A stretch of DNA of 64,000 bases from Amphiscolops sp. MND2022 (lineage: Eukaryota): NCBI GenBank assembly GCA_964187785.1, contig OZ076409.1, positions 37,884,001 through 37,948,000 of the forward strand, written 5' to 3'. The first letter of the stretch is position 1, and each line of letters opens with the position of its first letter. The notes below the pieces were generated by a model. It worked only from the letters and a program-made list of their open reading frames with translations, was not told where the DNA came from and did no database searches. The position numbers and the translations under genes are program-made. Shown one piece after another: positions 17,919-64,000 of this stretch.

Positions 17919-17945
17919 AGTTAGTTTCTTATTCGCCTACGCCTG

Positions 17946-18037: not shown

Positions 18038-18069
18038 AGCAATTTCAACAAATACTCGAATAGTGAGAC

Positions 18070-23170: not shown

Positions 23171-23212
23171 CTTTAACGCGCCCTCACTTATAATTTTCTT
23201 AATCATACTGAT

Positions 23213-23226
23213 CAAGGGGTGCGGTA
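23213..23226 (+). promoter_or_regulatory. BEL polypurine tract (imperfect)
   Basis: CAAGGGGTGCGGTA immediately precedes the 3' LTR. Confidence 0.6.
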
Positions 23227-23476: not shown

Positions 23477-23587
23477 GCCCAGTGGGTAATCTGACCCTAT
23501 TGTTGTTTAAAAAAGTGGGAAATGATCTCGCTCGATTGTACGATGGACCTCAGTCCAAGAATTTGTTAGAACTGGAAGGCTGAGTGA

Positions 23588-25700: not shown

Positions 25701-28700
25701 CCCAGTGGAGGTAATTAGAGCACGACTAGAGGGGCGGGGGAAGCCTAAGCAAATGGAAGAAGGACGTTTGATACTAAAGATTGAAATACTTTGTTGTACT
25801 TCCTGCTACCTGTTTTAGTATGCCATGGGAACAAAGATAAACTTCATCATCACTATGATACAGAATTGACAATGGTGAAGGCCGTTAAAACAAAAATAGG
25901 GTATCCCGAGAAGTCCCTTACAACCAGGCACCGTTCATCCTGAGAGATGCTGCGAACCTCGATCCACCTCTGACAATGACATAAGTGACAATGAAAATTT
26001 TCTACAAATGAATTTGTCGCAATTACTGAAGGATTTGCTGAAATCCTTAGTAATATTAGAATAGAATGTGGTGGTGGTGGTGGTGGTGGTGAATGAGGTT
26101 ACTATTGTTTTAAAAGACTCTACTCAAATCCGGATCATATGCGAGAAGACGTGAGATGTTGACTCACCATTTGAGTTTACATTGCAATCGGGAAAAAATG
26201 AAAAATTTTTACATTGTAACAATTTTTGAAAACGGTTTGTGTTATGCGGAGCTACTTTTTGATGGAACTATTATTAAACGTGAAAACTTTTTACCACGAT
26301 ACTTCGCTGACTTTAAATGAATTTTAATGAACACTCCATTCGAGTTTTATAGCGCTTTCAACCCACGAAAGAAAGCTTTCAATACAAGATGTAACAAATT
26401 GACAAATCGAGGAGATACGGGCTTCCCTGAAGCTGATGAAGAAGACAAATGTTAAATTGAGTGGACATTCTACATACAATTCACAAATTTTGCCCAAATT
26501 GTTTCAGGTATTTTTCGAAAGACACAAAGAAAAAATGTGGTCTCTGAATTCTAAGGTGATGAACATATACGAAAAGAACATGTCAGCTAATTACATGTTA
26601 TCAACTCCAGAAATCATGGATGGTTGGACAATATTGTCTACAGCTAAATTAGAAGACAAGGGTGTCTTGTTTTTTGTTTTTTGTAGTGATAGCCTTGCCA
26701 AGTTGACACAAGGCCAACTTGGAAGGCTATCACAAGATTCAGGTAAAAGCTGTTTCCTGAATTGGTTTAATGTGAATCGTATAATAAGCAAACGCGATAA
26801 ATGTGAGTAGGTTGTCAAATCTATAGAGTCCGTAAAGTGCAAGTAGTGAGAGACGTATTGGGAATTTGGTTAGCTACTATAAAATTGATTCAGTCTTTGC
26901 TAATTTATCTTTTAATGAACATTGCTTGTTAAACATATAACTCTTTTCAGCCGTAACAAAGAAGTTTGGAACAACGGGAAGATAAGAGACTTTGAAACAT
27001 GTCCACAGTTGTATAACCCTAGTGAATGAACTGCTGATTGATGTTTACAGTATCAACGTTTTAATAAAAAGTGCAAAAAATCTAGTGAAAAATTTTCAGT
27101 ACTCTAGAAAGTTTGGTGTTACACAATGCTTTATGCACCGCAGTTTTCACATAGACCACTCTATAGACCTCATCTTCACAACACTGATACTATGTTATTA
27201 GTAAGTGGCGGAAAATAGGTTAGTTTTTATGTATTCTGTTTTTATTGTTAAAATGTGTCTTCGAAATTTTCACCGGAAAGTTGAATTTTTCTTTGCAAAA
27301 CGTGTTATCGTAGCTCACAAGCCACTGAAGCATTTGACACCAGTCATATACCTATTTTTGATTATTTTGGAGGCCACAGGTTACGGCAGACACAATAATG
27401 TTGTTCAAAACACGAAAATTCAATTTTCGACCTGACAAAAATTGGGTTTTTGGGGTAAAAAAAATTTCATTTTGAGAACGAATGGGATAAAAAATGTGTC
27501 AAGACCAAGCGTGGTAGTGTTTTTTATACTTTTTATAAGTGTAAACAAGTCGTCTGCTGCCGGTGAGCTTGTGTTGAGCGTTAATACCATAACCAACAAA
27601 CACCGATTAAAAAAGGTCCCATGGAATGTTGCAAATAACCGGAACTTTCGGGCATAATCTCCTCTAGTGACTACTATTGACATGTCGAAATTCCTTGCAT
27701 TGTTGTTACAAGTCTGGTATGCACTTTAGTTGATCCTCGGGTATAGTGTTAGACAAAAAACAGTCTTAGTGTGACCGCCGATACCAAGAAACTGGTGATA
27801 CATCCGGAAAAATGCTGAAGTTGAAGTCATGCGTCTGTACAGTATGATATTTTTAGGTATCCCAGACTCTGAAAAATGACCTTGAAACTTCTATAAACAT
27901 CGTTTTCCTAAATTACAGTGCCTGTTGGTTGCTCTAGAATTCAATAGTTGCTGATAAAGCTCCATTTTGTCAATTCGACTCCACCAAAAATATGATGTTG
28001 TATCAATTTTTGACGAATTTCATTGTTGAAAAGGAAATATTGTTGCCCATGACTACTCGACTTATAGTGTATGTGCCTTGTCAAAGCCCAGTTGTGTTTT
28101 TAACATGCCAATGGACTAACAGAGGTGGATAGTTGATGTTTGTGGGCAAAAATTGGTAGTCCTATACGTCAAAAAATACTTTGGAAACAAATTTTATCTT
28201 GAAATTTTGTTCCTCAACGGGGCTTTTGCCACTCAAAATTGCAATATAACCATTCTGGAAGGTCAAATTGTGTTCCACGTCAGCTGTACACTTGGTTGTG
28301 ACCAAAACAGTGTCTTGATTGAGTAAAAAAGCACATTAGCTAATTTTCATTCAACCCATATATCGATATGTGAGGTATCATTTTCTGATGTGTAACGTCT
28401 AACGGCAACTGATTTTTTAAAAATGAATCCAAAATCACTGTGGGCACTTTCCTCATGCTACTCACGTGCCATATTATGCAAAACAACATTTTATGTGACT
28501 ATTGTGATTTAAAAATTGAATTTGGGCACTGAAAAACATGTTTTTTGGGTGAAAAATTGTTTTTCAAAACCCAAAATCTCACGTTGTGAGCACGAAAATT
28601 CCAAATTTTTACAGAAGCATGCTAAAGCTAAACTGATGGGTTTTTAGGCGTCACCATAGCTCACAAAAATTTTTTGACCTTATGGACGGAGACCGTACAG

Positions 28701-30593
28701 ACCGTTGTTCGCGAGCAAATGACCTTTTTGTAAGTCCGAGTCGCCTAAAAAAATGCTATGTAACCCATGTAAGCACTTTTATCACTCCCTGTAGCAACTG
28801 GTGAAAACTTTTTATCACCATTCGGTAGGCCAGTGGCCCACGTTTACTTTCCAAAAGATGACCCATGTTGCTATCTGTACTCTGTCAGGAGATATACATA
28901 CCCGAAATGTAGTTACGATGTGACAACATAACTCTCTATAACTCTCGGACTCAACTAAAAAATCGAAATTTTTTCAGACGCACTCTACAAGTCTACTGTT
29001 AGGTTTTTGGGCGTCACCATAGCACACTGACACTTTTTGACCGTATGGTCGAAGACCGTACGGACCGTTGGTGGAGCAGAAATGGTCTTTTTGTGGGTCC
29101 GAGTCGTGCAAAAAAATGCTAAATAACCTATCTTGGCATATTATTCACGCCATGCGGCACTTATTGAAAACTTTTTGTAACCATTCGATAGACCAGTGGC
29201 CCACGTTCATTTTCGAAAAGATGACCCATTATGCTATCTATACTCTGGCAGGAGATATGCATACCCGAAATGTTGTTACGATGTGACACCATAACTCTCG
29301 GACCCACGTAAAAATTCGAAATTTGTTCAGAAGCTTCCTACAAGTGTTCTGATAGGTTTTTGAGTGCCACCATGTTACACTGACATTTTTTGACCTTATG
29401 GTCCGAGACCGTGCAGACCGTTCCTGTGGAGCAAATCACCATTTTGTAACTCCGAGTCAACTTAAAAAATTCAAAATACCACTTCTGAGAATTTTTTTCT
29501 TTCGCAACGGCAACTAGGCTATGTTTTTTGCACTCAATCGTTAGACCGCTGCCCAATGTTCATTTTGATAAAGATGACCCACGGTGCTATCTGCGCTCGG
29601 TCATGAGAAACATCATCATGAAAAGTTCATACAACGTATGAGATTAACTCGGACCGTCACTCAAAAAAATTAATTTTTTTCAGAGGTCCCCCAGAGGTTC
29701 ACCAATGTCATTTTCGGTGTCGCCATAGCTCAGTGACATTTTTTGATCCTTATGTCGGAGACCGTGCGGACCGTTGTTGGCGAGGAATTCACATGTTTGC
29801 AAAAATGAGCTGATTTTCAAAAACTCATTCCTCACTATAAGGCATTTTTTGGCACCACCATTGCCCCAGGCCTACTTTTCGATAGTACCGTGGGTAGACC
29901 CCAGCCCGCTGATCTTTTTCATATATATGACCTCCGCTGCTACTGGTGCTGCGTGGTGAGTAATTGAACGAATAGTACATAATAAAAAATTTCATCCTAG
30001 CTCATCATGCCATACACCCCAAAAAATCGACTTTTTTATTATGTTCCCCCCAGGTGTAAAAATTATATTTTTGAATCCCTCATATAAAGCTGACAACTTT
30101 TGACTCTATGGTCCGAGACCGTTCGGACCCTTTAACGTGCTCAAATCGACTTATAAGTAAAGGTGATACTGGTGATACTTCACATTTTGGCATTTTTTGG
30201 CACTTTGAGTGCCCCGATTGGCACTTTTTTGGCACCATCATTTGACGCGCCACAATTCACAACTTTTTGTTAGTATGCATCATTGGGCTAGCGTGCACCG
30301 TGTAAAAGTTATTAAAGAAAAACGTTATATCCGAACAAAAATTCGTTATATCCGAACTTTTGTCAAAAAAACCATGAAGATGAATTTTGCGGGAAAAACG
30401 TCAGCAGGAAAAAGTTCTTAGAATTGCTCGAAGATTACATGTGCAAATTTTCATCCAATTCTAACGGCTCAGTTCCAAAATCGGCCTCCCACGTGTACGA
30501 TTTCTGGTAGATGACGTCGATACTTTATAAAATGAGCTCGGTCCCGGGTCCCTCCCCGGCCTCGCACAATTTTGTGGGCTAAGGCCGTGACCA
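25701..30593. mobile_element. Array unit U2, long class (4893 bp)
   Basis: Highly similar to U6 and to the left 3 kb of U4. Confidence 0.75.
28600..30200. repeat. About 355-bp internal tandem subrepeats of the long units (example in U2)
   Basis: The motif TTTTGACCTTATGGTCCGAGACCGTGCGGACCGTT or a variant recurs near 28675, 29037, 29391, 29742 and 30101, with the same pattern in the other long units. Confidence 0.85.
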
Positions 30594-33500
30594 CCTAGCG
30601 CTGGAGGCTAAACAAACCACGAGGATTAAGCAGTTGTCACAAGGATGGACAAGGATCGTGTGATTCCTCACGTATTTAGAAAAGGGTAGTTGTTAACCGG
30701 TGAACATGTAAACATGTTGTTCCGTTTGACCAAATCGATATTGAGCTTCAGACCAAATCAAAAATTAGCACCATCGGCGGTTGCCATTCTTTGTATCTCA
30801 GCAGGAATGTTTAGTAAACAGGAAAAAAACTGATCATTTTGTTTTGTGTGTTGCTGTGAAAAAAAGATTTGGCCGCGGAACTTACACTTCAGATATTACA
30901 TTGTTTTCACAGAGAAGGAGATGAAATAAACTTATGTGTTTCAAATTGTTGGATTCAAAAAAATGATCAACAGAAAAAGAAGTCAAGTAAACTAAGTTCC
31001 GAACAAACAATACCTGAATTTGAGGCACAAGAGAACTGAGAATTTAAAAGTTGCTATATGGTAAGTGAAAAAAAGTTATTGTTTAATTTACAAATTGAAT
31101 TTATTATACAATCGCAAAAAAAAGTAACTTGGAAAAATTAGGGGTTGTACCAATTTTCAATTGAATTTTGTGTTATGTGATTTACAAAACAATGTGTATT
31201 TTCATTAAGTATTTTAACTTGTGCATAATTTTTAACCAAAATTCGCTAATTTTAAATAATATTAAATGCATACTCTCCATCCGATTTTTTTTGTACTATG
31301 ACGCTACTAATCGAAGCCTTCAACAAAACATATGACTTATTGTAAGGTGGAGGAGATAGGGGATTTTGTGGAGTGGACAAAGGAGAACAGAGTTCAATAG
31401 ACGTTCCATAAACATTCTACATAAATATTATCACTTTGGAGTTGGTATTTTAGGAAACATTTGCACAGACAAAAAGAAAAAATACAGTCTTTGAAATTAT
31501 TGGTAGTCATCAAATACTGATGAGAACGTCAGCTGAGTACATGTTATAAAACAAAGGGACAAAGGAATAATTAGCAAGGTTGCCAACAGCCACATGGGAA
31601 GATGAAGAAGTCCTGTTTTTTGTTTTGTGCAGTGATAGCCTTGGCAAGTTGACACAAGGTCAACTTCAAAGGCTATCACAAGATTCAGTTATCAATTGTT
31701 TCCAAAGAAAACATAGTTGAATCATAATCTTCTAATGAACAAACGTCATGGCTGTGAGTAGGGTTTCAGGGCTTTTAAAATTTGGTTAGCTTACGTTAAG
31801 GCAATTCTGTCTTCGTAATTTCATGTAATACTGAACTTTGACATGTACAACTTGTGACATGTTTGAACGGAAACAAGGGATTTTTAAAAATAGTGAAAGA
31901 ATAATCACTGTGACAGATATTTAGTGTTTAATTTGCTTATTGAATGGAATTGCTGAACGATGTTTACAGCATCAGATTGTAGAGATAAAGTGCAAAAAGT
32001 ATAGTGAAAACATATGAGTACTTTGAGAAATTTTGTGTTGCACAATGCTTTATGCGCCACAGTTGTCCCATACATCCCTCTATAGACCTCAAATTCGCAA
32101 CACTGATACTGCATCAATAGTAATTGAGGGGAAATAGGTAGGTTTTCTATGTATTCAGTTTTTATTGTGAAAATGTATCTTCGAAAATTTCACTGGAAAG
32201 TTGATATTTTCTTTGCAAAACGTGTTATCGCGACTCACATGTCACTGAAGCATTTGAAACCAGTAACACTTTCGTTTTTGAGTATTTTGAGGGCCACAGG
32301 TTATGTTAGACACAATATTGTTGCTCAAAAGACAAAAATTCAATTTTCGCCCATGCAAAAATTGGGTTTTTGGGAACAAATTTATTCATGTTGAGAACGA
32401 ATGGGTTGAAAAATCTGTCAAGAACAAGCATGGTAGTTTTATAAACACTTTCTATAACTGTAAACAAGTTGTTTGTTGTCAGTATGCTCGTTGCTGAGCG
32501 TTAATACCATAACCGACAAGCAGCGATTAAAAAAAGGTGGAATTAAATATGACACAAAACATGAATTTTTGAGAAATATCTGTTCTGATCACTACTTATG
32601 ACATGTCGAAATGCCTTGCATTGTTTTTAAAAGTCTGGTCACCATCTTGGTTGATCCTCAGGTTTAATGTTAGACAAAAAACAGTGTTAGTAGGACCGCC
32701 GATACCAAATAAGTGGTGACTGATCCGGAAAAATTCTGAATTAGAAATCATGCGTCTATTCAGTATGATATTTTTAGGTACCTCACACTCTGAATATGAC
32801 CTTGAAACTTCTGTAAACATCATTTTCCTAAGTTACAGTGCCAGTGGGTTGCTCTAGAAAGCAAATGTTGCTGATAAAATTCCATTTTCTTAATTCGACT
32901 CCACCAAAAATTGGATGTTTTATCAATTTTTGAAGACTTTCACTGTTGAATAGTAAACATTGTTGTTCATGACTACTATAAGTAAAGTGTATGTGCCTTG
33001 TCAAGGCCCAGTTGTCTTTTTCACATGCCACTGGACTAACAAAAGTGGATAGTTGATGTTTGTGGGCAAAAATTGGTGGTCCTATACGTCAAAAAACGAT
33101 TTGGAAATAAATTTTATCTCGAATTTTTGTTGGTCAACGGCGTTTTTGGCACTCAAATTCGCAATGTAACCATTGTCAAAGGTCATTATGTGTTCCATGT
33201 CAGCTGTACACTTAGTTATGACCAAAACAGAGTCTTGATTGAGTGAAAAAGCACTTTAGATGATTTTCACTCAACACATATATCGATATGTAAGCTACGA
33301 TTTTCTGTAATGTAACGTCTAATGGCAGCTGATTTTTCCGATATGACTCCAAATCTACAGTGAGCACTTTCTTTACGTTATTCACATCCCATGTTATGCA
33401 AAAGAACATTTTAGGTGGCTACTGGGCTTTAAAAAATTTTTTTGGGCACTCAAAAACATGATTTTGTTGAGCAAAAAACACGGTTCCCAATGTAATATGT

Positions 33501-35529
33501 AACACAGTCTGCAGGAAAACACTAAATTTTTACAGAATGATCCCACAAGTAAACTGATGGGTTTTTGGGCGTCACCAAAGCCCACGAAAAATTTTTGACC
33601 TTATGGATGGAGACCGTACAGACCGTTGTTGGCGAGCAAATGACCTTCTTGTAAGTCCGAGTCGCCTGAGAAAATGCTAAGTAACCCTTGTAAGCATTTT
33701 CATCACTCCCTGTAGCAACTGGTGGAAACTTTTTATCACCATTTGGTAGGCCAGTGGCCAACGTTTACTTTCCAAAAGATGACCCATGTTGCTATCTGTA
33801 CTCTGTCAGGAGATATACATAGCCGAAATGTAGTTACGATGTGACAACATAACTCTCTATTACTCTCGGACTCACCTAAAAATTCCAAATTTTTTCAGAA
33901 GCACTCTAGAAGTGAACTGATGGGTTTGTGGGCGTCACCATAGCACAGTGACACTTTTTGATCTTATGGTCGAAGACCGTACGGACCGTTGGTGGAGCAG
34001 AAATGGGCCTTTTGTAGGTCCGAGTCGTGCAAAAAATTGCTAAATACCACATCTTGTCATATTGTTCACACCGTGCAGCAGTAATTGAAAACTTTTTGTA
34101 ACCAATCGATAGACCAGTGGCCCACGTTCTTTTTCGAAAAGGTGACCCATGATGCTATCTGTACTCTGTCAGGAGATATACATACCCGAAATGTACTTAC
34201 TATGTGACAACATAACTCTCTAAAACTCTCGGACTAACCTAAAAATTCCAAAATTTTTCAGAAGCACTATACAAGTGTTCTGATGGGTTTTTGGGCGTCA
34301 CCATGGCACACTGACACTTTTAGACCTTATGGTCGAAGACCGTACGGACCGTTGGTGGAGCAGAAATGGGCCTTTTGTAGGTCCGAGTCGTGCAAAAAAA
34401 TGCTAAATACCACATCTTGGCATGTTATTCACGCCGTGCAGCAGTAATTAAAAACTTTTTATAACCAATCGATAGACCAGTGGCCCACGTTCTTTTTCGA
34501 AAAGGTGACCCATGATGCTATCTGTACTCTGTGAGGAGATATGCATACCCGAAATGTAGTTACGATGTGACACTATAACTCTCGGACCCACGTAAAAATT
34601 CGAAATTTGTTCAGAAGCTTCCTACCACTGTTCTGATGTGTTTTTAGGCGCCACCATGTCACACTGACAAATTTTGATCTTATGATCCGAGACCGTTCGG
34701 ACCGTTCCTGAACAGAAAATCACAATTTTGTAACTGCGAGTCGACATCAAAAATTGAAAACAACACTTCTGGATAATTTTCTCTTTCACTATGGCAACTA
34801 AGGTATATTTTTTGCACCCAATCGTTAGACCGCTGCCCAACGTTCATTTTGATAAAGATGACCCACGGTGCTATCTGTACTCGGGTATGAGTTACAAGAT
34901 TATGAAATGTTCATACAACGCAACAGATCAACTCGGACCGTGACTCAAAAAAATCAAATTTTTCCAGAGGCCTCTTAGAGGTCAACCGATGTCATTTTGG
35001 TCGTCACCATAACTCACTGACAATTTTTGACTTTATGGTCCGAGACCGTGCGGACCGTTCCTCCTGTTCAAATCATCAGTTTTGTTGAAGTGATACTGTC
35101 CGAAAAATTTTTTTGGCACTTTTTGGCACTATAGTTGCTCCCTGGGGGAAATTTTTTTGGACCGTTGAATAGACCGTTGACCGTTGATGATTTTCATAAA
35201 AGTGTTTTGTGTCGCTATCTGTAATGCTTCACAGTGAAAATGGCCTTTAAACCTGTGAGTGATAAATCACGAATTGAAAAAACCAAAAAAAAACGCAAAA
35301 AAACCTATGATGGACATTTTTTTCGAAAAAGTGTCAGCAAGAAAAAGTTCTTAGAATTTGCTCTTCTATCTGTGTGCAAAGTTTCATCCAATTCTAACGG
35401 TTCATTTCGAAAATCGCTGTTTTGAGGCCGTGTTTTTGTATGTAGCTAGAGCGTCAAAGGCGAAAGGTGCGGCCGGCGGGTCCCGTCTCCCGCGGCCGCA
35501 AATTTAAACAGGGAATATCGCCCCGACCA
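30594..35529. mobile_element. Array unit U3, long class (4936 bp), divergent left arm and divergent terminal motif
   Basis: Starts CCTAGCGCTGGAGG; shares body, central hairpin and 355-bp subrepeats with the other long units. Confidence 0.75.
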
Positions 35530-38500
35530 CCCAGCGGAGGTAATTAGAGCACGACTAGAGGGGCGGGGGAATCCTAAGCAAATGGAAGAAGGACGTTTGA
35601 TACTAAAGATTGAAATACTTTGTTGTACTTCCTGCTACCTGTTTTAGTATGCCATGGGAACAAAGATAAACTTCATCATCACTATGTTACAGAATTGACA
35701 ATGGTGAAGGCCGTTAAAACAAAAATAGGGTATCCCGAGAAGTCCCTTACAACCAGGCACCGTTCATCCTGAGAGATGCTGCGAACCTCGATCCACCGCT
35801 GACAATGACATAAGTGACAATGAAAATTTTCTACAAATGAATTTGTCGCAATTACTGAAGGATTTGCTGAAATCCTTAGTAATATTAGAATAGAATGTGG
35901 TGGTGGCGGTGGTGGTGGTGAATGAGGTTACTAGTGTTTTAAAAGACTCTACTTAAATCCGGATCATATGCGAGAAGACGTGAGATATTGACTCACCATT
36001 TGAGTTTACATTGCAATCGGGAAAAAATGAAAAAATTTATACATTGTAACAAATTTTGAAAACGATTTGTGTTATGCGGAGCTACTTTTTTGATGGAACT
36101 ATTATTAAACGTGAAAACTTTTTACCACGATACTTCGCGGACTTTAAACGAATTTTAATGAACACTCCATTCGAGTTTTATAGCGCTTTCAACCCACGAA
36201 AGAAAGCTTTCAATACAAGATGTAACAAATTGACAAATCGAGGAGATACGGGCTTTCCTGAAGCTGATAAAGAAGCCAAATGTTAAATTGAGTGGACATT
36301 CTACATACAATTCACAAATTTTGACCAAATTGTTTCAGGTATTTTTCAAAAGACACAAAGAGAAAATGTTGTCTCTGAATTCTAAGGTGATGAATATATA
36401 CGAAAAAAACATGTCAGCTAATTACATGTTATCAACTCCAGAAATCATGGATGGTTGGACAATATTGTCTACAGCTAAATTAGAAGACAAGGGTGTCTTG
36501 TTTTTTGTTTTTTGTAGTGATAGCCTTGCCAAGTTGACACAAGGCCAACTTGGAAGGCTATCACAAGATTCAGGTAAAAGCTGTTTCCTGAATTGGTTTA
36601 ATGTGAATCGTATAATAAGCAAACGCGATAAATGTGAGTAGGTTGTCAAATCTATAGAGTCCGTAAAGTGCAAGTAGTGAGAGACGTATTGGGAATTTGG
36701 TTAGCTACTATAAAATTGATTCAGTCTTTGCTAATTTATCTTTTAATGAACATTGCTTGTTAAACATATAACTCTTTTCAGCCGTAACAAAGAAGTTTGG
36801 AACAACGGGAAGATAAGAGACTTTGAAACATGTCCACAGTTGTATAACCCTAGTGAATGAACTGCTGATTGATGTTTACAGTATCAACGTTTTGATAAAA
36901 AGTGCAAAAAATCTAGTGAAAAATTTTCAGTACTCTAGTAAGTTTGGTGTTACACAATGCTTTATGCACCGCAGTTTTCACATAGACCACTCTATAGACC
37001 TCATCTTCACAACACTGATACTATGTTATTAGTAAGTGACGGAAAACAGGTTAGTTTTTATGTATTCTGTTTTTATTGTTAAAATGTGTCTTCGAAATTT
37101 TCACCGGAAAGTTGAATTTTTCTTTGCAAAACGTGTTATCGTAGCTCACAAGCCACTGAAGCATTTGACACCAGTCATATACCTATTTTTGATTATTTTG
37201 GAGGCCACAGGTTACGGCAGACACAATAATGTTGTTCAAAACACGAAAATTCAATTTTCGACCTGACAAAAATTGGGTTCTCGGGGAAAAAAATTTCATT
37301 TTGAGAACGAATGGGATAAAAAATGTGTCAAGACCAAGCGTGGTAGTGTTTGTTATACTTTTTATAAGTGTAAACAAGTCGTATGCTGCCGGTGAGGTTG
37401 TTGTTGAGCGTTAATACCATAACCAACAAACACCGATTAAAGAAGGTCCCATGGAATGTTGCAAATAACCGGAACTTTCGGGCATAATCTCCTCTAGTGA
37501 CTACTATTGACATGTCGAAATTCCTTGCATTGTTGTTACAAGTCTGGTATGCACCTTAGTTGATCCTCGGGTATAGTGTTAGACAAAAAACAGTCTTAGT
37601 GTGACCGCCGATACCAAGAAACTGGTGATACATCCGGAAAAATGCTGAAGTTGAAGTCATGCGTCTGTACAGTATGATATTTTTAGGTATCCCAGACTCT
37701 GAAAAATGACCTTGAAACTTCTATAAACATCGTTTTCCTAAATTACAGTGCCTGTTGGTTGCTCTAGAATTCAATAGTTGCTGATAAAGCTCCATTTTGT
37801 CAATTCGACTCCACCAAAAATATGATGTTGTATCAATTTTTGACGAATTTCATTGTTGAAAAGGAAATATTGTTGCCCATGACTACTCGACTTATAGTGT
37901 ATGTGCCTTGTCAAAACCCAGTTGTGTTTTTAACATGCCAATGGACTAACAGAGGTGGATAGTTGATGTTTGTGGGCAAAAATTGGTAGTCCTATACGTC
38001 AAAAAATAGTTTGGAAACAAATTTTATCTTGAATTTTTGTTCCTCAACGGGTCTTTTGCCACTCAAACTTGCAATATAACCATTCTGGAAGGTCAAATTG
38101 TGTTCCACGTCAGCTGTACACTTGGTTGTGACCAAAACAGTGTCTCGATTGAGTAAAAAAGCACATTAGCTGATTTTCATTCAACCCATATATCGATATG
38201 TGAGGTATCATTTTCTGATGTGTAACGTCTAGTGGCAGCTGATTTTTTAAAAATGAATCCAAAATCACTGTGGGCACTTTCCTCATGCTACTCACGTGCC
38301 ATGTTATGCAAAACAACATTTTATGTGACTATTGTGATTTAAAAATTGATTTTGGGCACTGAAAAACATGTTTTTTGGGTGAAAAATTGTTTTTCAAAAC
38401 CCAAAATCTCACGTTGTGAGCACGAAAATTCCAAATTTTTACAGAAGCATGCTAAAGCTAAGCTGATGGGTTTTTGGGCGTCACCATAGCTCACGAAAAT

Positions 38501-40421
38501 TTTTCGACCTCATGGACAGAGACCGTACAGACCGTTGTTCGCGAGCAAACGACCTTTTTGTAAGTCCGAGTCGCCTGAAAAAATGCTATGTAACCCATGT
38601 AAGCACTTTTATCACTACCTGTAGCAACTGGTGAAAACTTTTTATCACCATTCGGTAGGCCAGTGGGCCACGTTTACTTTCCAAAAGATGACCCATGATG
38701 CTATCTGTACTCTGCCAGGAGATATACATACCCGAAATGTAGTTACGATGTGACAACATAACTCTCAAAACCTCTCGGACTCACCTAAAAATACCAAATT
38801 TTTTCAGAAGCACTCTACAAGTATACTGATGGGTTTTTGGACGTCACCATAGGACACTGTCACTTTTTGACCTTATGGTTGAAGGCCGTGGGGACCGTTG
38901 GTGGAGCACAAATGAGCTTTTTGTAAGTCCGAGTCGTGCAAATAAATGCTAAATACAACATCTTGGTATATTTTTCACGCCATGCTGCTCTTATTGAAAA
39001 CTTTTTACAACCACTCGATAGACCAGTGGCCCACGTTCATTTTCAAAAAGGTGACCCATGATGGTATCTGTACTCTGGCAGGAGATATGCATACCCGAAA
39101 TGTTGTTACGATGTGACACCATAACTCTCTGACCCACGTGAAAATTCGAAATTTGTTCAGAAGCTACCTACACGTGTTCTGCTGGGTTTTTGGACGCCAC
39201 CATGTTACACTGACGAAATTTGACCTTGGTCTGAGACCGTGCAGACCGTTCCTGTGGAGCAAATCACCATTTTGTGACTCCGAGTCGACATAAAAAATTG
39301 AAAATACCACTTCTTGGAATTTTTTTCTTTCACAATGGCAACTAGGCAATGTTTTTTGCACTCAATCGTTAGACCACTGGCCAATGTTCATTTTCATAAA
39401 GATGACCTACGCTGCTATGTGTACTCGGTTATGAGTAATATGATTATGAAATGTTCATACGACGTATACCATCAACTCGGACCGCGACTCAAAAAATTAA
39501 TTTTTTTTCAGAGGCCCCCCAGAGTTTATTCAATGTCATTTTTCATGTCACCTTAGCTCACTGACAATTTTTGGTTATATTGTTGGAGACCGTGCGGACC
39601 GTTGTTGACGAGGAATTCACATGTTTCGAAACATGAGCTGATTTTCAAAAAATCATTCCTCACTATAAGGCATTTTTTGGCACAATCATTGCTCCAGACA
39701 TACTTTGCGGTAGTACCGTGGAGAGACCCCAGCCCCCTGATCTTTTTCATATAAATGACTTACGCTGCTACTGGTGCTGCGTGTTGAGCAATTGAATGAA
39801 AAGTACTGTATAAAAAATTTCATCATTGCTCATCATGCCATACACCCCAAAAAATCGACTTTTTTATTACGACCCCTACAGGTGTAAAAATTATGTTTTT
39901 GAAACCCTCATTGAATGCTGACAATTTGTGGTCTTATAGTCCGAGACCGTTCGGACCGTTTAACATGCTTAAAATGACCTATAAGTACAGGTGATATTGG
40001 TGATACTTCACATTTCGGCATTTTTTGGCACTTTAAGTGCCTCCAGCGGCACTTTTTTGGCACCATCATTTGCATCGTCGCATTTCACAACTTTTTGTTA
40101 GTATGCATCATTGGGCTAGCGTGCACCGTGTAAAAGTTAATAAAGAAAAACGTTATATCCGAACAAAAATTCGTTATATCCGAACTTTTGTCAAAAACAC
40201 CATGAAGGACAAGTTTGCGGGAAAAACGTCAGCAGAAAAAAGTTCTTAGAATTGGGAGAAATGGCCATATGCAAATTTTCAAGGACTTCTCACGGCTCAT
40301 TTAAGAAATAACCTTCCCACACGTAGGTGTCGGGTAGTATATAGAGATCCTTATATAACGCGCTCGGTCCCGGGTCCCTCCCCGGCCTCGCACATTATTG
40401 CAGTGGGACAACACGTGACCA
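35530..40421. mobile_element. Array unit U4, long class (4892 bp)
   Basis: Left 3 kb near-identical to U2 and U6; right end diverged. Confidence 0.75.
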
Positions 40422-53200: not shown

Positions 53201-53424
53201 AAAAACCCTACAAAATGAATTTTCCTGGAAAAACGTCAGCAGAAAAAAATTCTTAATTTTTTGAGATAAAGCCACATGCAAAGTTTCAGACAAATCCTAC
53301 GGGTGAATTTCGAGATCGGTTAAAATACTTCGCAATCCTGAAGGTAGGAATTGATAGAATGTGCTCGGCTCTCGGGACCCTCCCCGGCCTCGCAATATTT
53401 TCTGATGGGCATCCCCCTTGACCA
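50217..53424. mobile_element. Array units U7 (50217-51285), U8 (51286-52354) and U9 (52355-53424), short class (1069, 1069, 1070 bp)
   Basis: U7 and U8 are near-identical; U9 is of the U1 type. All share the right part. Confidence 0.78.
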
Positions 53425-56400
53425 CCCAGTGGAGGCGAGGTTGTTGCAGTTACACTGCCGAGAAGCGAGGAAAATGTGTATAGAAAGATAAGAATTTTCA
53501 GCAATAAAATTTTCGTTTTCCGTTCTGTTGACAAAAGTAGTCTTTGTTGTGTTCAACGTATTTCATATTTGGCATCTCCACGACACGTGGTGCCTTACAA
53601 TGCTACTTGTCACTTATCCATCAATCTGCAAGCCAACGCGACGTTCCTGCTGAATAAAAGCGATGTTCTACTTTAACAATTTACAAAGAAAAGTGGAAGA
53701 GTTTCAACATTAGAAGTAATAGTTCATTACAGTGATTAATGCCTTATAATCTCCAATAACACTCCAAATAGTGAACGTAACTGCCTCGTTATGTGGAAAT
53801 GGGTGGAGAGAATTGTAAAAAAAGAAAGCTCTGTTGTGACCGAGGTGAGATGCGAAGATGACGGGACTGGCGAATTCCAAATATTGAAATTATTCACAAT
53901 CGGACAGAAAAATTTTTGTGGAAGGAATTGACTGCTGGAAATTTTTGAAGTATTTTTGTGTGCCATGTGTTTGCCCAAATAATTTTCAGATAGGATAGAT
54001 TTATTCCGTAGTTTTGAACCTTTCCTATCACAAGTGGCTGACTTAAATGCATTAGAAATACATACACTCCAACTCCATTTCCTTTTTTTGCCCTATGTCA
54101 CCACTGTGGAAGACATCAACGTATGATGTAACGTACTGTCTGGTGGAGGTATAGAGGATTTCGTGGAACCAATAGGGGTAGCCACTCATTGGTTAGATAA
54201 ATGTACGTTCCACATACAATTCATATGTTTCAAGTTAGTTTTTATGGTATTTTTAAGCGTCACAAGGAAAGATTTATTTATTGAACACAATGGTGGTCAT
54301 CGTATAGCGAATAGAAATGCTCATGTCCTGAATTTATCAATTAATGTGAGAAAGGAAAGTTCAATGAAAGTGTCCCCGCCTATTTTGAGAGTAGAGGAAC
54401 TCCTGGTTTTTGGTGTTTGTAGTGTTAGCCTTCCAAGTTGGCCGAAGGCCAACTTGGAAGGCTATCACGAAAATTTTTTATAAGCTCTTTATAAAAATGC
54501 AAGTTTCAGTTATAAAGTCTTTATAAAAATGCAAATGAAATCTATATAGTCTGCGAAATCCAAGTACTGAAAAACGTATTGAGAATTTGATTACCTGCTG
54601 TGAAGTTGATTCGGTCTTTGCTAATGTATCTTTTAATGAACATTGCGTTGTAAAACATATGACACTTTTCAGCCCTAACAAAGGAGTTTGGAACAACAGA
54701 AAGATTGTGCACTTTGAAAAAGATACACAGTTGATAAACCGTACTAAATTGAACTGCTCATTGATGTTTACACTATCAAATTTTTGAGTTAGAGTGCAAA
54801 AAAACCGTGACAAATTCTTAGTACTTTGGTAAACTTTGTGTTACACAATGCTTTATGCGCCATATTTTTCCCATACACCCCTGTATGGACCTCATATTCG
54901 CAACAATGATACTATATTAATAGTAATTGACGGGAATTAGCTTAGATTGTTATATATTCTGTTTCTATTGTGAAAATGTGTCTTCGAAATTTTCAGTTGA
55001 AAGTTGAATTTTTCTTTGCAAAACGTGTTATCGTGGCTCACATGTCACTAAAGCATTTGATACCAGTCATGTATCTCTTTTTCAGTATTTTGGAGGCCAC
55101 AGGTTACGTCAAACACAATAATGTTGTTCAAAACACGAGAAATCAGGTTTCGACCTGACAAAAATTGGGTTATTGGGGAAAAAATTTTTATTGTTACGAA
55201 CGAATGGGATAAAAAATGTGTCCAGACCAAGCATGGTTGTATTATAAACACTTTTAATGACTATAAACGAGTTGTTTGTTGTCAGTGAGGTCGTTGTTGA
55301 GCGTTAATACCATAACCGACAAGCACCGATTAAAAAACGTGGAATGGAATATGACACATACCATGATTTTTTGAGAAGTTTCTCTTCTTATCAGTACTTT
55401 TGACATGTCGAAAGTCCTTGCATTGATTTTACAAGTCTCATATACATCTTGGTTGAGCCTCGGGTTTAGTTTTAGACCAAAAACAGTGTTGGTAGGACCG
55501 CTGATACCAAAAAAGTGGTGACACAACCGGAAAAATTCCAATGTTTAAGTCATATGTCTATTCAGTATGATATTTTTATGTACCTCAGATTCTGAAAAAG
55601 TAGCATGAAACTACTGTAGACCGTATTTTCCTAAGTAACAGTGCCACTGAGTTGCACTAAAAGCCTTTAGTTGCTGCAGAAGCTCCAATTTGTCATTTCG
55701 AGTCCACCAAAAATGTGACGTTGTATCAATTTTCAACAAAATTTGCTATCGATTAGCGAATATTGTGGCACATGACTACTCGAAGTAAGGTCCTTGTGCC
55801 TTGTCAATGCCCAGTTGTATTTTTCACAAGCCACTGGGCCAAGAGAAGTGGATATTTGATGGTTGTCGGCTAAAAATGGCGTTCCTATACTTCAAAAAAT
55901 GATTTGGAAAGCAATTTCATCTTGGAATTTTGTTTGTCAACGAGGCTTTTGTACCTCAAAATTGCACTATAACCATTGTGGAAGGTCAAAATAGGTTCCA
56001 CGTCAGCAGTACACTTGGTTGTGAACAAAAAAGAGTCTTGATTGACTGAAAAAGAACTTTAGCTGTTTTTGACTCAACCCATGAATCGATATGTAAGGTA
56101 CGATTTTCTGTAATGTAACGTCTAATGGCAGCTGATTTTTTCGACATAACTCCAAATCCACAGTGAGCACTTTCTTCACGTTATTCACACCCCGTGTTAT
56201 GCAAAAGTACATTTTAGATGGCTACTGGGCTTTAAAAACAGTTTTTGGGCACTCAAAAACATGATTTTGGAGAGAAAAAAACACGGTTCCCAATGTAATA
56301 TGTAACATAGTCTGCACGAAAACACTAAATTTTTACAGAATCATCCCACAAGTAAACTGATGGGTTTTTGAGCGTCACCATGGCCCACAAAAAATTTTCG

Positions 56401-58316
56401 ACCCATTGAGTGGAGACCGTACAGACCGTTGTTCGCGAGCAAATGAGCTTTTTGTAAGTCCGAGTCGCCTGAAAAAATGCTATGTAACCCATGTAAGCAC
56501 TTTTATCACTCCCTGTAGCAACTGGTGAAAACTTTTTATCACCATTTGGTAGGCCAGTGGCCGACGTTCACTTTCCAAAAGATGACCCATGTTGGTATCT
56601 GTACTGTGTCAGGAGATATACGTTCCCGAAATGTAGTTACGATGTGACAACATAACTCTCTATAACTCTCGGACTCACCTAAAAATTCCAAAATTTTTCG
56701 GAAGCACTCTACAAGTGTACTGGTGGGTTTTTGGGCGTCACCATAGCACACTGACACTTTTTGACCTTATGGTCGACGACCGTACAAACCGTTGGTGCAG
56801 CAGAAATGGGCCTTTTGTAGGTCCGAGTCGTGCAAAAAAATGCTAAATACCCCATATTGGCATATTATTCACGCCGTGCAGCAGTGACTGAAAACTTTTT
56901 ATAACCAATCGATAGACCAGTGGCCCACGTTCTTTTTCGAAAAGGTGACCCATGATGCTATCTGTACTCTGTGAGGAGATATGCAGACCCGAAATGTAGT
57001 TACGATGTGACACTATAACTCTCGGACCCACGTGAAAATTCGAAAATCTTTCAGAGGCTTCCTACCAGTGTTCTGATGTGTTTTTGGGCGCCACCATGTC
57101 ACACTGACAAATTTTTATCTTATGGTACCAGACCGTTCGGACCGTTGCTGAAGAGAAAATCACATTTTTGTAACTGCGAGTCGACATGAAAAATTGAAAA
57201 CAACACTTCTGAAAATTTTTTTCTTTCACTATGGCAGCTAAGGTATATTTTTTGCACTCAATCGTTAGACCGCTGCCCAACGTTCATTTTGATAAAGATG
57301 ACCCACGGTGCTATCTGCACTCGGTTATGAGTAACATGATTATGAAATGTTGATACAACGTAACAGATCAACTCGGACCGTGACTCAAAAAAATCAAATT
57401 TTTCCAGAGGCCTTTTAGAGGTCAACCGATGTCATTTTGGTCGTCATCATAACTCACTGACACTTTTTTACCTTATGGTCCGAGACCGTGCGGACCGTTC
57501 CTCCTGGTCAAATCATCAATTTTGTAATGGTGATACTGTTGGAAAAAACCTTTTGCCACTTTTGACCACTTTGATTGGGCCCGAGGGGAAAATTTTTTTG
57601 GACCGTTCGGTAGACCGTTGGCCGTTGATGATTTTGCAATATGTGCACATTGGCAGTATCAGCATTGCTTCATGCTGAAAATGGACTTTGAATATGTGAG
57701 TGATAAATCACATTGAATCAAAAAACCCGAAATATTGCAAATATAGGTTGAAGATGCAATTTTTCGGAAAAACGTCAGAAGTAAAAAGTTCTTAGAATTT
57801 GTTGTACTACCTGTGTGCCAAGTTTCCACGCAATCCACGGACTTTTTGATTTTTCTCATTTTTGAAACAAATTTTGGCCAAATATGTGCAAATTTTCGTA
57901 TTCGGTAAATTTTCCGCCAATATTATCCGCCATATCTCCACTCCTGTTGCGAATTGAGAAATAATTTTTGGCATGTGTAAACATGACATCATTTATGCCT
58001 CGCACGCAAAAAATGGGCCAAATGCATAGCGTAAAGTGTGGAGCTGCTGCGTGAAAAATGCGAAAAATGGCCAAAAAACACGATCATTTGCACATAACTT
58101 TCCAACAAATGTTTCAATCATGATACGTCAGGAGAAAAAAGTTCTTAGAATTTAATTCTATGTATGTGTGCAAAGTTTCATGGAAATCTAACGGTTAGTT
58201 TGGAAAATCGCTTGTTTTTCTCCCGATCTCACATAGATGCATTTTGTATTTAGCGCTCGGCTCCGGGACCCTCCCCAGGCCTCGCAATAGTTCATGTGGG
58301 GGACCACCCCGGACCA
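53425..58316. mobile_element. Array unit U10, long class (4892 bp), third left-arm type
   Basis: Starts CCCAGTGGAGGCGAGG; colinear with U12. Confidence 0.75.
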
Positions 58317-59352
58317 CCCAGTGGAGGCAAAGGTACAATCACGAGAAAGGCCGTAATGACATTGTAGAGGTAAGCAATGAGGCGGAACTCACAGGATAAC
58401 GACCATCAATTGTTATGCATTGTACAAAACTTGCTCAAAACGGCTTTCTTTCATCTGCAATAATTCATCCTATAACGCACGCGCGAACCATCACAGGTGA
58501 TGTACAGGCAATGTAGTTTGTCTTCACCGTTCTTCCTCCGAACTGCTTCGCGGTCCTCCGGAGAACGGTGATGTTGTTACTTACAATTGAACAAAAATAC
58601 ACTTACACATTCAGTTCCAACAACTGAAGCAACAGTTCAGTATTGTCTCAATTACCTTTTCTGACCTCTGAAACCCCTTTAATTGTCACCGTAAGTGCAG
58701 AGTCACTTCTTTTTTGCGTTCAAAATGTGAAAAAGCATCGAAAAATGAGAAAATCTTTTTTTTGAAAAAATTCTAAATTTTTAGAATTTTGGTAGAACTT
58801 TTGTAGAACTTTTTATTTTTTATTTTTTTTATCCTGACCACGCGATGTTGAAACCACCTCGAGTGTACTGCTACCGCTCCATTAAACACCATCTCATACA
58901 AAGTTCGGAAGTTATGACGCGATGACCGGAGAATTCACAATTTTCCACTACTTTTTCTACTACTATCTCCCAGCCTAGTGTCACCAGCCTAATGATTTTT
59001 GGCATGCAAACACCTGACATCATTTATGCCTCGCATGCAAAGTATCAGCCAATTGTATCCACATGCTGCAGATATCGCAGCGAAAAAGTACCGAAACAGG
59101 GTGAAAAAACCGATCATTTGCTCATAACTTCCCGCCAAGTAATAGGATCATGTTTGACCAGCAGAACATCATTTGTACATCGGCAAGATAAGTACACATG
59201 CAAAGTTTAAAGAAGTTTTATCGGTTCAATTCGAAAATCGCCGTTTTTTGACTGGTATGCTAAAGGATATAGTACGACACGCGAAAATTAAGCTCGGCAT
59301 CGGGACCCTCCCCGGCCTCGCACTAAATAATGTGGGGAACTACCCCGGACCA
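58317..59352. mobile_element. Array unit U11, short class (1036 bp)
   Basis: Right half is homologous to U0. Confidence 0.72.
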
Positions 59353-62300
59353 CCCAGTGGAGGCGAGGTTGTTGCAGTTACACTGCCGAGAAGCGAGGAA
59401 AATGTGTAGAGAAAGAAAAGAATTCTCAACAATAAAATTTTCGTTTTCCGTTCTGTTGACAAAAGTAGTCTTTGTTGTGTTCAACGTATTTCATATTTGG
59501 CATCTCCACGACACGTGGTGCCTTACAATCCTACTTGTCACTTATTCTCCATCAATCTGCAAGCCAGCGCGACGTTCCTGCTGAATAACAGCGATGTTCT
59601 ACTTTAACAATGTACAAAGAAAAGTGGAAGAGTTTCAACATTAGAAGTAAATGTTCATTATATTGATTAATGCCTTATAATCTCCAATAACACTCCAAAT
59701 AGTGAACGTAACTGCCTCGTTATGTGGAAATGGGTGGAGAGACTTGTCGAAAAGAAAGCTCTGTTGTGACCGAGCTGAGATGCGAAGATGACGGGACTGG
59801 CGGATTCCAAATTTTGAAAATATTCACTATCGGACAGAAAAATTTTTGTGGAAGGATTTGACTGCTGAAAATTTTTGAAGTATTTTCGTGTGCCATGTGT
59901 TTGCCCAAATAATTTTCAGCTGAAATAGATTTATTTCGTAGTAGTGAACCTTTCCTACCACAAGTGGCTGACTTAAATGCATTAGAAATACATACACTCC
60001 AACTCCATTTCCTTTTTTTTGCCGTATGTCACCAGTGTGGAAGACATCAACGTATATTGTAACGTACCGTCTGGTGGAGGGGTAGAGGATTTCGTGGAAC
60101 CAATAGGGGTAGCCACTCATTGGTTAGATGAATGTACGTTCCACATACAATTCATAAGTTTCAAGTTAGTTTTTACGGTATTTTTAAGCGTCACAATGAA
60201 AGATGTATTTATTGAACACTATGGTGGTCATCGTATAGCGAATAGAAATGCTCATGTCCTGAATTTATCAATTAACGTGAGAAAAGAAAGTTGAATGAAA
60301 GTTTCTCCGCCTATTTTGAGATTAAAGGAACTCCTGGTTTTTGGTATTTGGAGTGCTAGCCTTCCAAGTTGGCCGAAGGCCAACTTGGAAGGCTATCACG
60401 AAATTTTTTTATAAGTTCTTTATAAAAATGCAAGATTCAGTTATAATGTCTTTATAAAAATGCAAATCAGATCTATATAGTCTGCAAAATCCAAGCACTG
60501 AAAGACGTATTGAGAAGTTTGTTAGCTTTTGTAAAATTGATTCAGTCTTTGCTAATTTATCTTTTAATGAACATTGCGTTGTAAAACATATGAATCTTTT
60601 CAGCCGTAACAAAGGATTTTGGAACAACAGAAAGATCGTGCACTTTGAAACATATGCACAGTTGAATAATCGTACTAAATTGAACTGCTCATTGATGTTT
60701 ACACTATCAAATTTTTGTCATAGAGTCCAAAAAGTACAGTGAAAAATGCGCAGTACTTTGGAAAGTTTTGTGTTACACAATGCTTTATGCGCCACATTTT
60801 TCCCATACACCGCTGTATAGACCTCATATTAGCAACACTGATAGTATATCAATAGTATTTGACGGGAAATAAGTTACTTTTTATGAATTTTGTTTTTATT
60901 ATGAAAATATGTCTTCAAAATTTTAACTTAAAAGTTGAATTTTTCTTTGCAAAACGTGTTATCGTGGCTCACATGTCAATGAAGCATTTGATACCAGTCA
61001 TGTATCTGTTTTTCAGTATTTTGGAGGCCACAGGTTACGTCAGACACAATAATGTTGTTCAAAACACGGGAAATCAATTTTCGACCTGACAAAAATTGGA
61101 TTTTTGGGGAAAAAAATTTGCTTGTTAACAACGAATGGGATGAAAAACCTGTCCAGACCGAGCATGGTTGTATTATAAATACTTTTTATAACTATAAACG
61201 AGTTGTTTCTTGTCAGTGAGGTTGTTGTTGAGCGTTAATACCATAACCGACAAGGACCGATTAAAAAAGGCACAATGGAACGTGACAAATAACTGGAATT
61301 TTTGGGAAATATCTCCTGTCATCACTACTTTTGACATGTCGAAATTCCTTGCAATGATTTTTCAAGTCTGGTATCCACCTTGGTTGATCCTAAGGTTTAG
61401 TGTCAGACCAAAAACAGTATTGGTGGGACCGCCGATACCAAAAAAGTGCTGACACATCGGGAAAAATACTGAAGTTGAAGTCATGCGTCTCTTCAGTATG
61501 ATATTTTTAGCTACCTCAGACTCTGAAATATAACCTTAAAAGTTCGGTAAACACCCTTTTCCTATATTACAGGCCCAGTGGGTTGCTGTGAAAGCCAAAA
61601 GTTGCTGATAAACCTCCATTTTGCTAGTTTGATTCCAACAAAAGTGTGATGTGTTATCAATTTTAGACAAATTTCACTACTGATTTGTAAATATTGTTGC
61701 CCATGACTACTCGATTTTTAGTGTATGTGGATTGTCAATGCCTAGTTGTGTTTTTCACATGCCACTGGACTAAGAGAAGTGGATAATTGATGTGTGTGGG
61801 CAGAAATTGGCGGTTGTATACGTCAAACAATGATTTGGAAACAAACTTTATCTTGGAATTTTGTTTGTCAACGGGGCTTTTGTCACTCAAAATCGTAATG
61901 TAACCATTGCGGAAGATCAATATGCGTTCAACGTCAGCTGTACACGTGGTTGTGAACAAAAAAGGGTCTTGATTGACTGAAAAATCATTTAAGCTATTTT
62001 TCACTCAACCCATATATTGATATGTGAGGTATGATTTTCTGTTGTGTAACGTCCAATGGCAGCTGATTTTTTCAAAATGACCCCAAACCCACAGTGGGCA
62101 CTTTTTTCATGTTATTCACATCCCATGTTGTGCAAAACAACATTTTATGTGGCTATTGTGCTTTAAAAACTAATTTCGGGCACTCAAAAACATAATTTTG
62201 TTGGAAAAATAACACGGTTCGCCATGTAATATCTAACATAGTGAACTGGAAAAAAACAAATTTTTTCAGAATCATCCTACAGGTAAACTGATGGGTTCTT

Positions 62301-64000
62301 GGGCGTCACCATAGCTCACAAAACTTTTTTGACCTTATGGTCGGAGACCGTAGAGACCGTTGTTGGCGAGCAAATAAGCTTTTTGTAAGTCCGAGTCGCC
62401 TAAAAAAATGGTAAGTAACACATGTAAGCACTTTTATCATTCCCTGTAGCAACTAGTGAAAACTTTTTATCACCATTCGGTAGGCCAGTGGGCCACCTTT
62501 ACTTTCCAAAAGATGACCCATGTTGCTATCTGTACTCTGTCAGGAGATATACATACCCGAAAAGTAGTTACGATGTGACAACATAACTCTCTATAACTCT
62601 CGGACTCACCTAAAAATTCCAAAATTTTTCAGAAGCACTCTACAAGTGTACTGATGGGTTTTTGGGCGTCACCATAGCACACTGACACTTTTTGACCTTA
62701 TGGTTCAAGACCGTACGGACCGTTGGTGGAGCAGAAATGGGACTTTTGTAGGTCCGAGTCGTGCAAAAAAATGCTAAATACCCCATATTGGCATATTGTG
62801 CACGCCGTGCAGCAGTGACTGAAAACTTTTTATGACCAATCGATAGACCAGTGGCCCACGTTCTTTTTCGAAAAGGTGACCCATGATGCTATCTGTAGTC
62901 TGTAAGGAGATATGCATACCCGAAATGTAGTTACGATGTGACACTATAACTCTCGGACCCACGTAAAATTTCGAAATTTGTTCAGAAGCTTCCTACCACT
63001 GTTCTAATGTGTTTTTGGGCGCCACCATGTCACACTGACAAATTTTGATCTTATTGACCGAGACCGTTCGGACCGTTCCTGAAGAGAAAATCACATTTTT
63101 GTAACTCCGAGTCGACATGAAAAATTGAAAACAACACTTCTGAAAATTTTTTTCTTTCACTATGGCAGCTAAGGTATATTTTTGGCACTCAATCGTTAGA
63201 CCGCTGCCCAACGTTCATTTTGTTAAAGATGACCCACGGTGCTATCTGTACTCGGTTATGAGTAACATGATTATGAAATGTTCATACAACGTAACAGATC
63301 AACTCGGACCGTGACTCAAAAAAATCAAATTTTTCCAGAGGCCTCTTAGAGGTCAACCAATGTCATTTTGGTCGTCACCATAACTCACTGACACTTTTTC
63401 ACCTTATGGTCCGAGACCGTGCGGACCGTTGCTCCTGGTCAAATCATCAATTTTGTAATGGTGATACTGTTGGAATATACATTTTGGCACTTTTGGCCAC
63501 TTTGATTGAGCCCGAGGGGAAAATTTTTTTGGACCGTTCGGTAGACCGTTGGCCGTTGATGATTTTGCAATATGTGCACATTGCCGGTATCTGCGTTGCT
63601 TCATGCTGAATTTGGACTTTGAATATGTGAGTGATAAATCACCTTGAATCAAAAAACCCGAAATATTGCAAATATAGGTTGAAGATGCAATTTTTCGGAA
63701 AAACGTCAGGAGAAAAAAGTTATTAAAATTTGTTCCACTACCTGTGTGCCAAGTTTCAACGCAATCCAAGGACTTTTCAGTTTTTGTCATTTTTCAAACA
63801 AATGTTGGCCAAATGTGTGCAAATTTTCGTATTCGTTAAATTTTCCGCCAATATTATCCGCCATATCTCCACTCCTGTTGCGAATTAAGAAATAATTTTT
63901 GGCATGTGTAAGCATGACATCATTTATGCCTCGCACGCAAAAAATGGGCCAAATGCATAGCGTAAAGTGTGGAGCTACTACGTGAAAAATGCGAAAAATG
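59353..64000. mobile_element. Array unit U12, long class, cut by the window end
   Basis: Colinear with U10 up to U10 position about 58069. Confidence 0.72.

Follow-up and report, generated by a model that had tools for sequence, protein, structure and literature searches.

Non-coding units of two sizes joined at one exact site in a mixed tandem array of Amphiscolops sp. MND2022

We analysed a 64,000-nucleotide stretch of the Amphiscolops sp. MND2022 genome (assembly GCA_964187785.1, contig OZ076409.1, positions 37,884,001 to 37,948,000 of the forward strand; hereafter the window), in which thirteen non-coding units (U0–U12) lie head to tail from position 23588 to the window end. Full-length units, about 1.05 kb or about 4.9 kb long, are joined at one exact site and the joining is site-specific; the units trade sequence in register and gain or lose modules of ~355 bp. 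Colinear descent with small insertions and deletions (indels) explains most of their length constancy; it does not explain why the long units keep five module slots, a number reached through two different compensating changes. Our tentative reading (probability about 0.45) is that the units are non-autonomous cassettes, joined site-specifically, whose size is subject to a soft preference that is probably linked to chromatin.

Units of the array and their shared junction

The array comprised the following units (window positions; letters denote modules of the long units, described below).

23588..24631, + strand: U0, short, H type, 1044 bp
24632..25700, + strand: U1, short, G type, 1069 bp; left ~275 bp, post-D, G and terminal block
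25701..30593, + strand: U2, long, A B C D E, 4893 bp
30594..35529, + strand: U3, long, A B B' C D/G, 4936 bp
35530..40421, + strand: U4, long, U2 type, 4892 bp
40422..45331, + strand: U5, long, U2 type, 4910 bp
45332..50216, + strand: U6, long, U2 type, 4885 bp
50217..53424, + strand: U7, U8 and U9, short G type, 1069, 1069 and 1070 bp
53425..58316, + strand: U10, long, A B C D/G H, 4892 bp
58317..59352, + strand: U11, short, H type, 1036 bp
59353..64000, + strand: U12, long, U10 type, predicted 4895 bp; runs past the window edge

All twelve lengths given by an initial annotation of the window were reproduced exactly on recomputation. Its estimate that the next junction lies 247 bp past the window end was also recovered by alignment: the end of U12 in the window corresponds to U10 +4645, giving the predicted 4895 bp. 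The long units represent three architectures (U2/4/5/6, U3 and U10/12) and the short units two (U1/7/8/9 and U0/11). The six complete long lengths thus reduce to three architectures and the six short ones to two, so the lengths are not 12 independent data points. Unit copies were 80–99% alike, with the types mixed along the array.

Each of the 12 complete units ran from CC to GACCA at full length, without tail or truncation. One of the 12 junctions in the window serves as an example.

25640..25711, + strand: junction U1|U2 (25700|25701), with a GC-rich block from about -62, a small hairpin near the end and GACCA|CCYAG

Besides this GC-rich block, the right ends had in common a motif at -148 to -155 and, ahead of GACCA, a small, weak hairpin whose letters vary. 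GACCACC occurred 15 times on the + strand: 12 times at junctions, twice in the flank and once ten bases before a junction. In seven of seven pairs of units with right ends at least 90% alike over 200 nt, the following 100 nt were only 43–71% alike, and the exact runs past the junction measured 2, 2, 11, 7, 32, 2 and 2 nt. Where left ends were nearly identical, exact identity reached back only 5–6 nt before the junction (6/6 pairs). Shared runs this short are too little for ordinary homologous crossover, and we infer that the junction is a reused site-specific joint. The completeness of the units argues against target-primed retrotransposition, and an array of LTR or non-LTR retroelements was rejected, since no complete unit (0/12) had long terminal repeats (LTRs), a poly(A) tail or a 5' truncation. 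The most changed right end was that of U3 (35460–35529), where the hairpin was far stronger (-19 kcal/mol) and which paired better with U3's own left end (8/9 by eye) than common right ends did with common left ends.

Mostly inherited length, module exchange and short types

The initial annotation had proposed that length is conserved despite different sequence content, including "three different left arms" in the long units. This was overstated: the arms are colinear homologues from about +300–450 onwards, and only +30–300 is non-alignable. In global alignments of all three pairs of arms, z was 0.2–1.8 over +30–300, 3.6–5.0 over +300–600 and 13.6–17.4 over +600–960, the last at 59–63% identity. 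The core (+1200–2890, ~1.7 kb) differed by up to 21% substitutions among 21 pairs of units and by only 0–9 indels per pair, all of 1–2 bp. Sliding identities between U10 and U12 passed from 93–97% to 77–88% and back to 93–97%; this mosaic points to in-register exchange between units. Colinear descent with few indels, which by the annotation's own account would refute selection on length, thus accounts for +300 to +2890, or ~55–60% of a long unit, and for most of the constancy of length. It does not account for the module count, with its compensating changes, or for the agreement of the short types.

The right 1.8 kb of the long units consisted of ~355-bp modules in the order A B C D E (U2/4/5/6), A B B' C G (U3) or A B C G H (U10/12).

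28592..30357, + strand: five ~355-bp modules of U2; core-to-core distances 363, 353, 353 and 357
33875..34586, + strand: duplicated modules B and B' in U3; 92% identical to each other, B' 94–95% identical to B of U10/U12
34944..35271, + strand: D/G chimeric module of U3, with the crossover in the conserved core; common to U10 (57384–57726) and U12
57766..58119, + strand: H slot of U10 (353 bp), flanked by two copies of the start motif of the terminal block; related to U0/U11 and to a metagenome contig, L004 (see below)

The annotation had recognised the replaced module of U10 and its relation to U0/U11, which stood (67% over 336–366 bp), and had overlooked both the duplicated module B in U3 and the D/G chimeric module in U3 and U10/U12. 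In trees of the module parts before and after the core, the pre-core part of the G module of U3, U10 and U12 grouped with D, and its post-core part grouped with G of U1, sister to E. Because these three units have the chimera in common, they are also alike in having lost one segment of 357 bp (core to core). This loss was offset in U3 by an extra 363-bp B segment and in U10 and U12 by the 353-bp H slot, which did not match a profile of modules A–G. Five slots were therefore present in all six complete long units by three arrangements, and U12 matched U10 as far as read. The profile detected no decayed modules within the core.

Short unit U1 consisted of ~275 bp of the long left arm and ~790 bp of the right end (post-D, G and terminal block). 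U0 and U11 matched the long left arm as far as about +500; H and the terminal block came next. This assignment was drawn from profile matches at U0 387–498 (E 4e-5 to 2e-4), from a U0/U11 profile that matched U2 and U5 in their left arms (E 5e-7 and 2e-6) and from two of eight local alignments at 0/200 shuffles; the U1 negative control was negative in 4/4 tests. As the annotation had stated, U0 and U11 could not be aligned with U1 in the middle (+260–850, global z 0.3 and 1.1). Judged by their sequences, the U1-type and U0-type short units seem to derive from separate deletions, with breakpoints that differ between them, and both come to 1.04–1.07 kb. The rough chance that two deletions agree within 35 bp is 1.7–2.7%, computed post hoc, and the agreement apparently lies outside colinear descent.

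Size preference and rival explanations

Chromatin or bending geometry, one of the causes of length selection suggested in the initial annotation, drew some direct support from the 353–363-bp modules and from A-tracts phased at 10.25–10.5 bp; its suggestion of capsid packaging drew none.

27300..28590, strand not assigned: core with 10.25–10.5-bp AA/TT periodicity in U2; likewise in U3 and U10

Over +1600–2890 this phasing reached z 7.0 (U2), 3.7 (U3) and 8.6 (U10), with 0/60 shuffles as high in each. Phased segments at 0/60 shuffles made up 4/11 in the array, against 0/18 flank windows (maximum z 2.4). U0 had an AA/TT period of about 9.75 bp (z 3.2).

Under our preferred reading, the cassettes would be moved in trans by a putative end-specific enzyme. 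Excised circles or rolling-circle products (of tyrosine recombinase or HUH type) would insert at an existing GACCA|CC junction, and repeated insertion there would build mixed arrays at many loci. The soft preference would keep the slot number of long units at five and the size of the short, deletion-derived units at about 1.05 kb. Its likeliest cause would be the geometry that chromatin or bending imposes on the intermediate, since the modules are about two nucleosomes in length and the A-tracts are phased. The few compensating rearrangements leave the odds of a real size constraint about even, and such a constraint is more likely chromatin-linked than capsid-linked. To our knowledge, no fixed length is generally ascribed to non-autonomous DNA transposons, and Helitron-like elements differ freely in how many internal tandem repeats they carry. 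If the family did regain exactly one module after the loss of one, it would provide a natural test of a chromatin or packaging limit on the size of a mobile DNA intermediate. The exact, reusable junction points to a putative site-specific enzyme.

Several observations weigh against a size preference. A neutral random walk of indels, fed with the 39 observed gap sizes (1–35 bp) and indel-to-substitution ratios of 0.03–0.12, held two units within 35 bp with P 0.27–0.77. A duplicated segment in the flank was likewise poor in indels (28 mismatches vs 1 gap), so the low indel rate may be a trait of the genome, and as proof of selection it was ruled out by this control. The compensating events were few and found after the fact, and the data comprise only three long and two short architectures from one array. 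Phasing was absent over +300–1600 and weak in the modules (z 1.6–1.8), U1 and U11; in the core, nucleosome-scale lags of 170–183 bp reached p<=0.05 in 3/5 related copies, as did control lags of 240–256 in 1/5. The homology of U0/U11 to the left arms was weak and A/T-rich: two of eight local alignments stood at 0/200 shuffles, the other six had p 0.025–0.4, and the U0/U11 profile found no match on the left arms of U3, U10 or U12. In L004, the upstream unit had no junction in 1406 bp and no A–G modules; it is thus not a 1.05-kb unit, and units of other sizes or contents exist. Neither an enzyme, a circle nor an empty site was seen in this one array.

The strongest competitor, to which we give somewhat less credence, is an array of mobile cassettes whose length is neutral, produced by colinear descent, rare small indels, in-register recombination and gene conversion offset by one module. 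A single conversion tract displaced at both ends by one ~355-bp period can delete D and insert B at once, which also counts against a size preference, and a second tract onto an H-type unit would give U10; the short types would agree by chance or through very old common descent. The homologous left arms, the sparse 1–2-bp indels of the core (0–9 per pair at up to 21% substitution), the fit of the small-indel simulation to the spread and the in-register exchange seen in the mosaic identities all favour this explanation. A further point in its favour is that in U3, B' resembles B of U10 more (95%) than B does (90%), the outcome expected of a shifted tract. However, single unequal crossovers should leave units of four or six slots, and none of the six complete long units of the array was of this kind; the differing breakpoints of the two short types are also not explained. 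If this account is true, the array would be a clear example of offset conversion mimicking length selection.

We regard as doubtful a bolder form of the size preference, in which the units would belong to an undescribed eukaryotic cassette class with integron-like integration at the short junction, hard selection for two quantised sizes and the ~355-bp modules as stuffer. The quantised sizes would on this whole reading, to which the same doubt applies, correspond to about 6 and 28 nucleosomes or to particle capacities.

A host-functional higher-order satellite (a centromeric or other heterochromatic array), with its period held by host chromatin and not by mobility, would fit the 353–363-bp modules, the phased A-tracts and the retroelement-rich flank. 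We consider it improbable, because the units are shuffled at one exact junction, their copies (80–99% alike) are mixed and not homogenised, and the core is spread over many contigs.

Least probable of all is that the units depend on a helper virus or virus-like element as its satellites and are size-selected by a capsid, with 4.9 kb as a headful, 1.05 kb as small-particle or co-packaged DNA and the modules as stuffer. The gain of a module after a loss would be expected of a stuffer, class-specific hairpins are present and small DNA viruses have capsid size limits, but no viral gene lay in or beside the array, three viral_contigs scans gave no true relative, long terminal hairpins were absent and the two sizes do not form a simple ratio (about 4.6).

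The class-specific hairpins were as follows.

24852..24897, + strand: +200 hairpin of short units, 46 bp; also at 23789–23834, 50439–50484, 58525–58570 and at 1607–1655 of L004
26686..26734, strand not assigned: ~50-bp palindrome of long units, at about +990–1075; also near 31632–31680, 54422–54468 and 60353–60399

The short-unit hairpin lay at +202 to +223; it was decayed in U2 and U5 and not found in U3 and U10. By eye, U11 and L004 each changed both sides of one of its stem pairs. The long-unit palindrome had z -8.7 to -9.9, with 0/200 shuffles as stable in all three copies tested. Measured as a fraction of unit length, the positions of the two hairpins are similar in the two classes (about 0.21–0.23), and the distance of the palindrome from the left end is roughly the length of one short unit; either may be coincidence.

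Candidates for coding or RNA function were rejected. As a coding remnant the units gave neutral synonymous/non-synonymous patterns in six frames and left arms free of codon-position bias; the best coding score was 1.5, whereas a 20%-mutated control scored 3.8 +/- 4.6, which makes the power of this test low. Pfam and PHROG returned nothing credible for the unit frames scanned, longer or intact homologues of these frames were not found (weak evidence), and no tyrosine recombinase was detected among the window open reading frames (ORFs) or the unit frames scanned. An Atlas lead to a START domain for a U2 frame (0.92; 143–148 shared features, below 170) had no Pfam support. An HDV-like ribozyme and a tRNA-like end had no Rfam or ARAGORN support, and 0/13 pairs of the consensus fold showed double changes. 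For a rod-like RNA, U1 folded no better than 8 shuffles, and U0 and U11 only modestly better. The left arm of U10 (53716–54480) contains a + frame of 255 codons with only four stops, which had no Pfam match, homologue or codon-position bias.

Known elements, relatives and flanking DNA

By analogy, the array works most like non-autonomous rolling-circle or recombinase-moved elements that form tandems by target preference. HINE and DINE-1 elements, which are non-autonomous Helentrons (PMC4067079), resemble the units: they are non-coding, their ends are conserved, tandem repeats occupy the centre, a stem-loop and, about 40–60 bp from the 3' end, a conserved block mark the 3' side, and deletion derivatives occur. 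The units have such a 3' stem-loop (3–4-bp stem, -1 to -5 kcal/mol) and central repeats (the ~355-bp modules), but their stem is nearer the right end than the 8–35 bp described. HINE and DINE-1 carry subterminal inverted repeats of 12–15 bp (PMC4067079), whereas the units have only GGAGG/CCTCC (5 bp, exact by eye), and no end-to-end inverted match was found among the minus-strand self matches or the longest inverted repeats listed. Their boundaries are T-rich with a TT target, in contrast to GACCA|CC at 12/12 junctions here.

Canonical Helitrons begin with 5' TC and end with 3' CTRR, with a palindrome of 16–20 nt ~11 bp from the 3' end (PMC4067079). The minus-strand unit ends read CTRG at 12/12 junctions, but the free end of U0 reads GTGG; no target duplication is visible, as in Helitrons. 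However, the next unit starts with GTGGTC and not TC, there is no A|T target, no RepHel was found in the unit frames scanned and the first 60 nt of the units contained no conserved hairpin that could serve as the palindrome before CTRG. The number of monomers in central Helitron arrays differs greatly, reaching ~90 (PMC10048060), whereas the long units stay at five.

Cryptons (PMC3212892) likewise lack terminal inverted repeats, have a proposed circular intermediate and give rise to non-autonomous derivatives that keep both ends. The tyrosine recombinase of Cryptons had no counterpart among the window ORFs or the unit frames scanned. Crypton terminal direct repeats measure 4–6 bp, and the units show ACC-ACC across their junctions, with the left border of the array obscured by a stub and the right border beyond the window; mixed arrays such as the present one are not described for Cryptons in the available part of that source. 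Replitrons (PMC10288648), placed in plants, algae and protists, also come in a long (3.6 kb) and a short (~0.91 kb) form with only ~50 bp in common at either end, and have a right-end hairpin. Their long element has a Y1 Rep gene and a 6-bp terminal direct repeat, whereas the long units have no coding signal or family match and only ACC-ACC across the junction. Target-site preference of transposable elements also gives tandems (PMC5932611), head-to-tail arrays that arise as copies insert again and again at a favoured site; the present array differs in mixing five full-length subtypes of two sizes with shared ends. A literature search returned no title or abstract start describing a size-held mixed array, which is no proof of absence, as subscription papers and repeat databases lay mostly outside the search.

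Relatives were sought beyond the window. One metagenome_contigs scan gave no match and another gave four, among which the only true relative was L004 (1670 bp, 39% GC), which was 70% identical to U10 +4483–4787 and had the same right end, the same junction and a hairpin at +201 of the next unit. The interior of its upstream unit (L004 1–780) was unrelated to the window units, which suggests further subtypes with different cargo. The other three contigs (L001–L003, 47–67% GC) did not align to the units and were rejected. Three viral_contigs scans gave 0, 1 and 0 matches, the single one (L005) being a chance match, and two genome_contigs scans gave 0 and 0. A profile of one stop-poor core frame found only nine short called frames (54–162 aa), all mapping back to the repeat of the array. 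Clusters of core-frame matches contained ENA members on contigs with 25 distinct lengths, several of them repeated, which mapped to the U2, U3, U5, U10 and U12 types at 59–100%; one was identical to the window's own frame and possibly comes from the same contig. Calls of such chance reading frames place the family on many contigs, some of them with several types. One cluster also held P0199, which was rejected as an unrelated enzyme.

The window was eukaryotic in character, and its first 23.5 kb contained ORFs of Gypsy-type and BEL/Pao LTR retrotransposons, with a gag that seems to resemble acoel gags. Rfam gave no match at gathering score and ARAGORN no tRNA in the window; a search of 23400–36000 for structured RNA (tRNA, snRNA, ribozyme) gave nothing beyond chance matches (E 1.7–4.4). 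Two features adjoin the array on its left.

17028..23476, + strand: BEL/Pao LTR retrotransposon, with LTRs at 17028–17277 and 23227–23476; in the flank, outside the array
23477..23587, strand not assigned: stub of ~110 bp from the BEL LTR to U0, which obscures the true left boundary of the array

At 23478–23596, an inverted pair of 9 bp (CCAGTGGGT ... ACCCACTGG) extends across the stub into the first bases of U0. Its left copy looks like the start of a unit, and it starts where BEL inserted, with an apparent 4-bp duplication (GCCC). Upstream of the BEL 5' LTR, 16200–17027 is rich in A/T tracts and short internal repeats, with no clear match to the units, and contains a tRNA-box-like stretch. 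In the retroelement zone, 8354–12443 of the minus strand has four ORFs of 195–434 aa without significant Pfam match; by eye, one has a CxxC...H zinc-finger-like motif, and the region is possibly another DNA transposon. Finally, a Gypsy 5' region with the start of gag is duplicated (1–1731 vs 14315–16046) at 98.3% identity.

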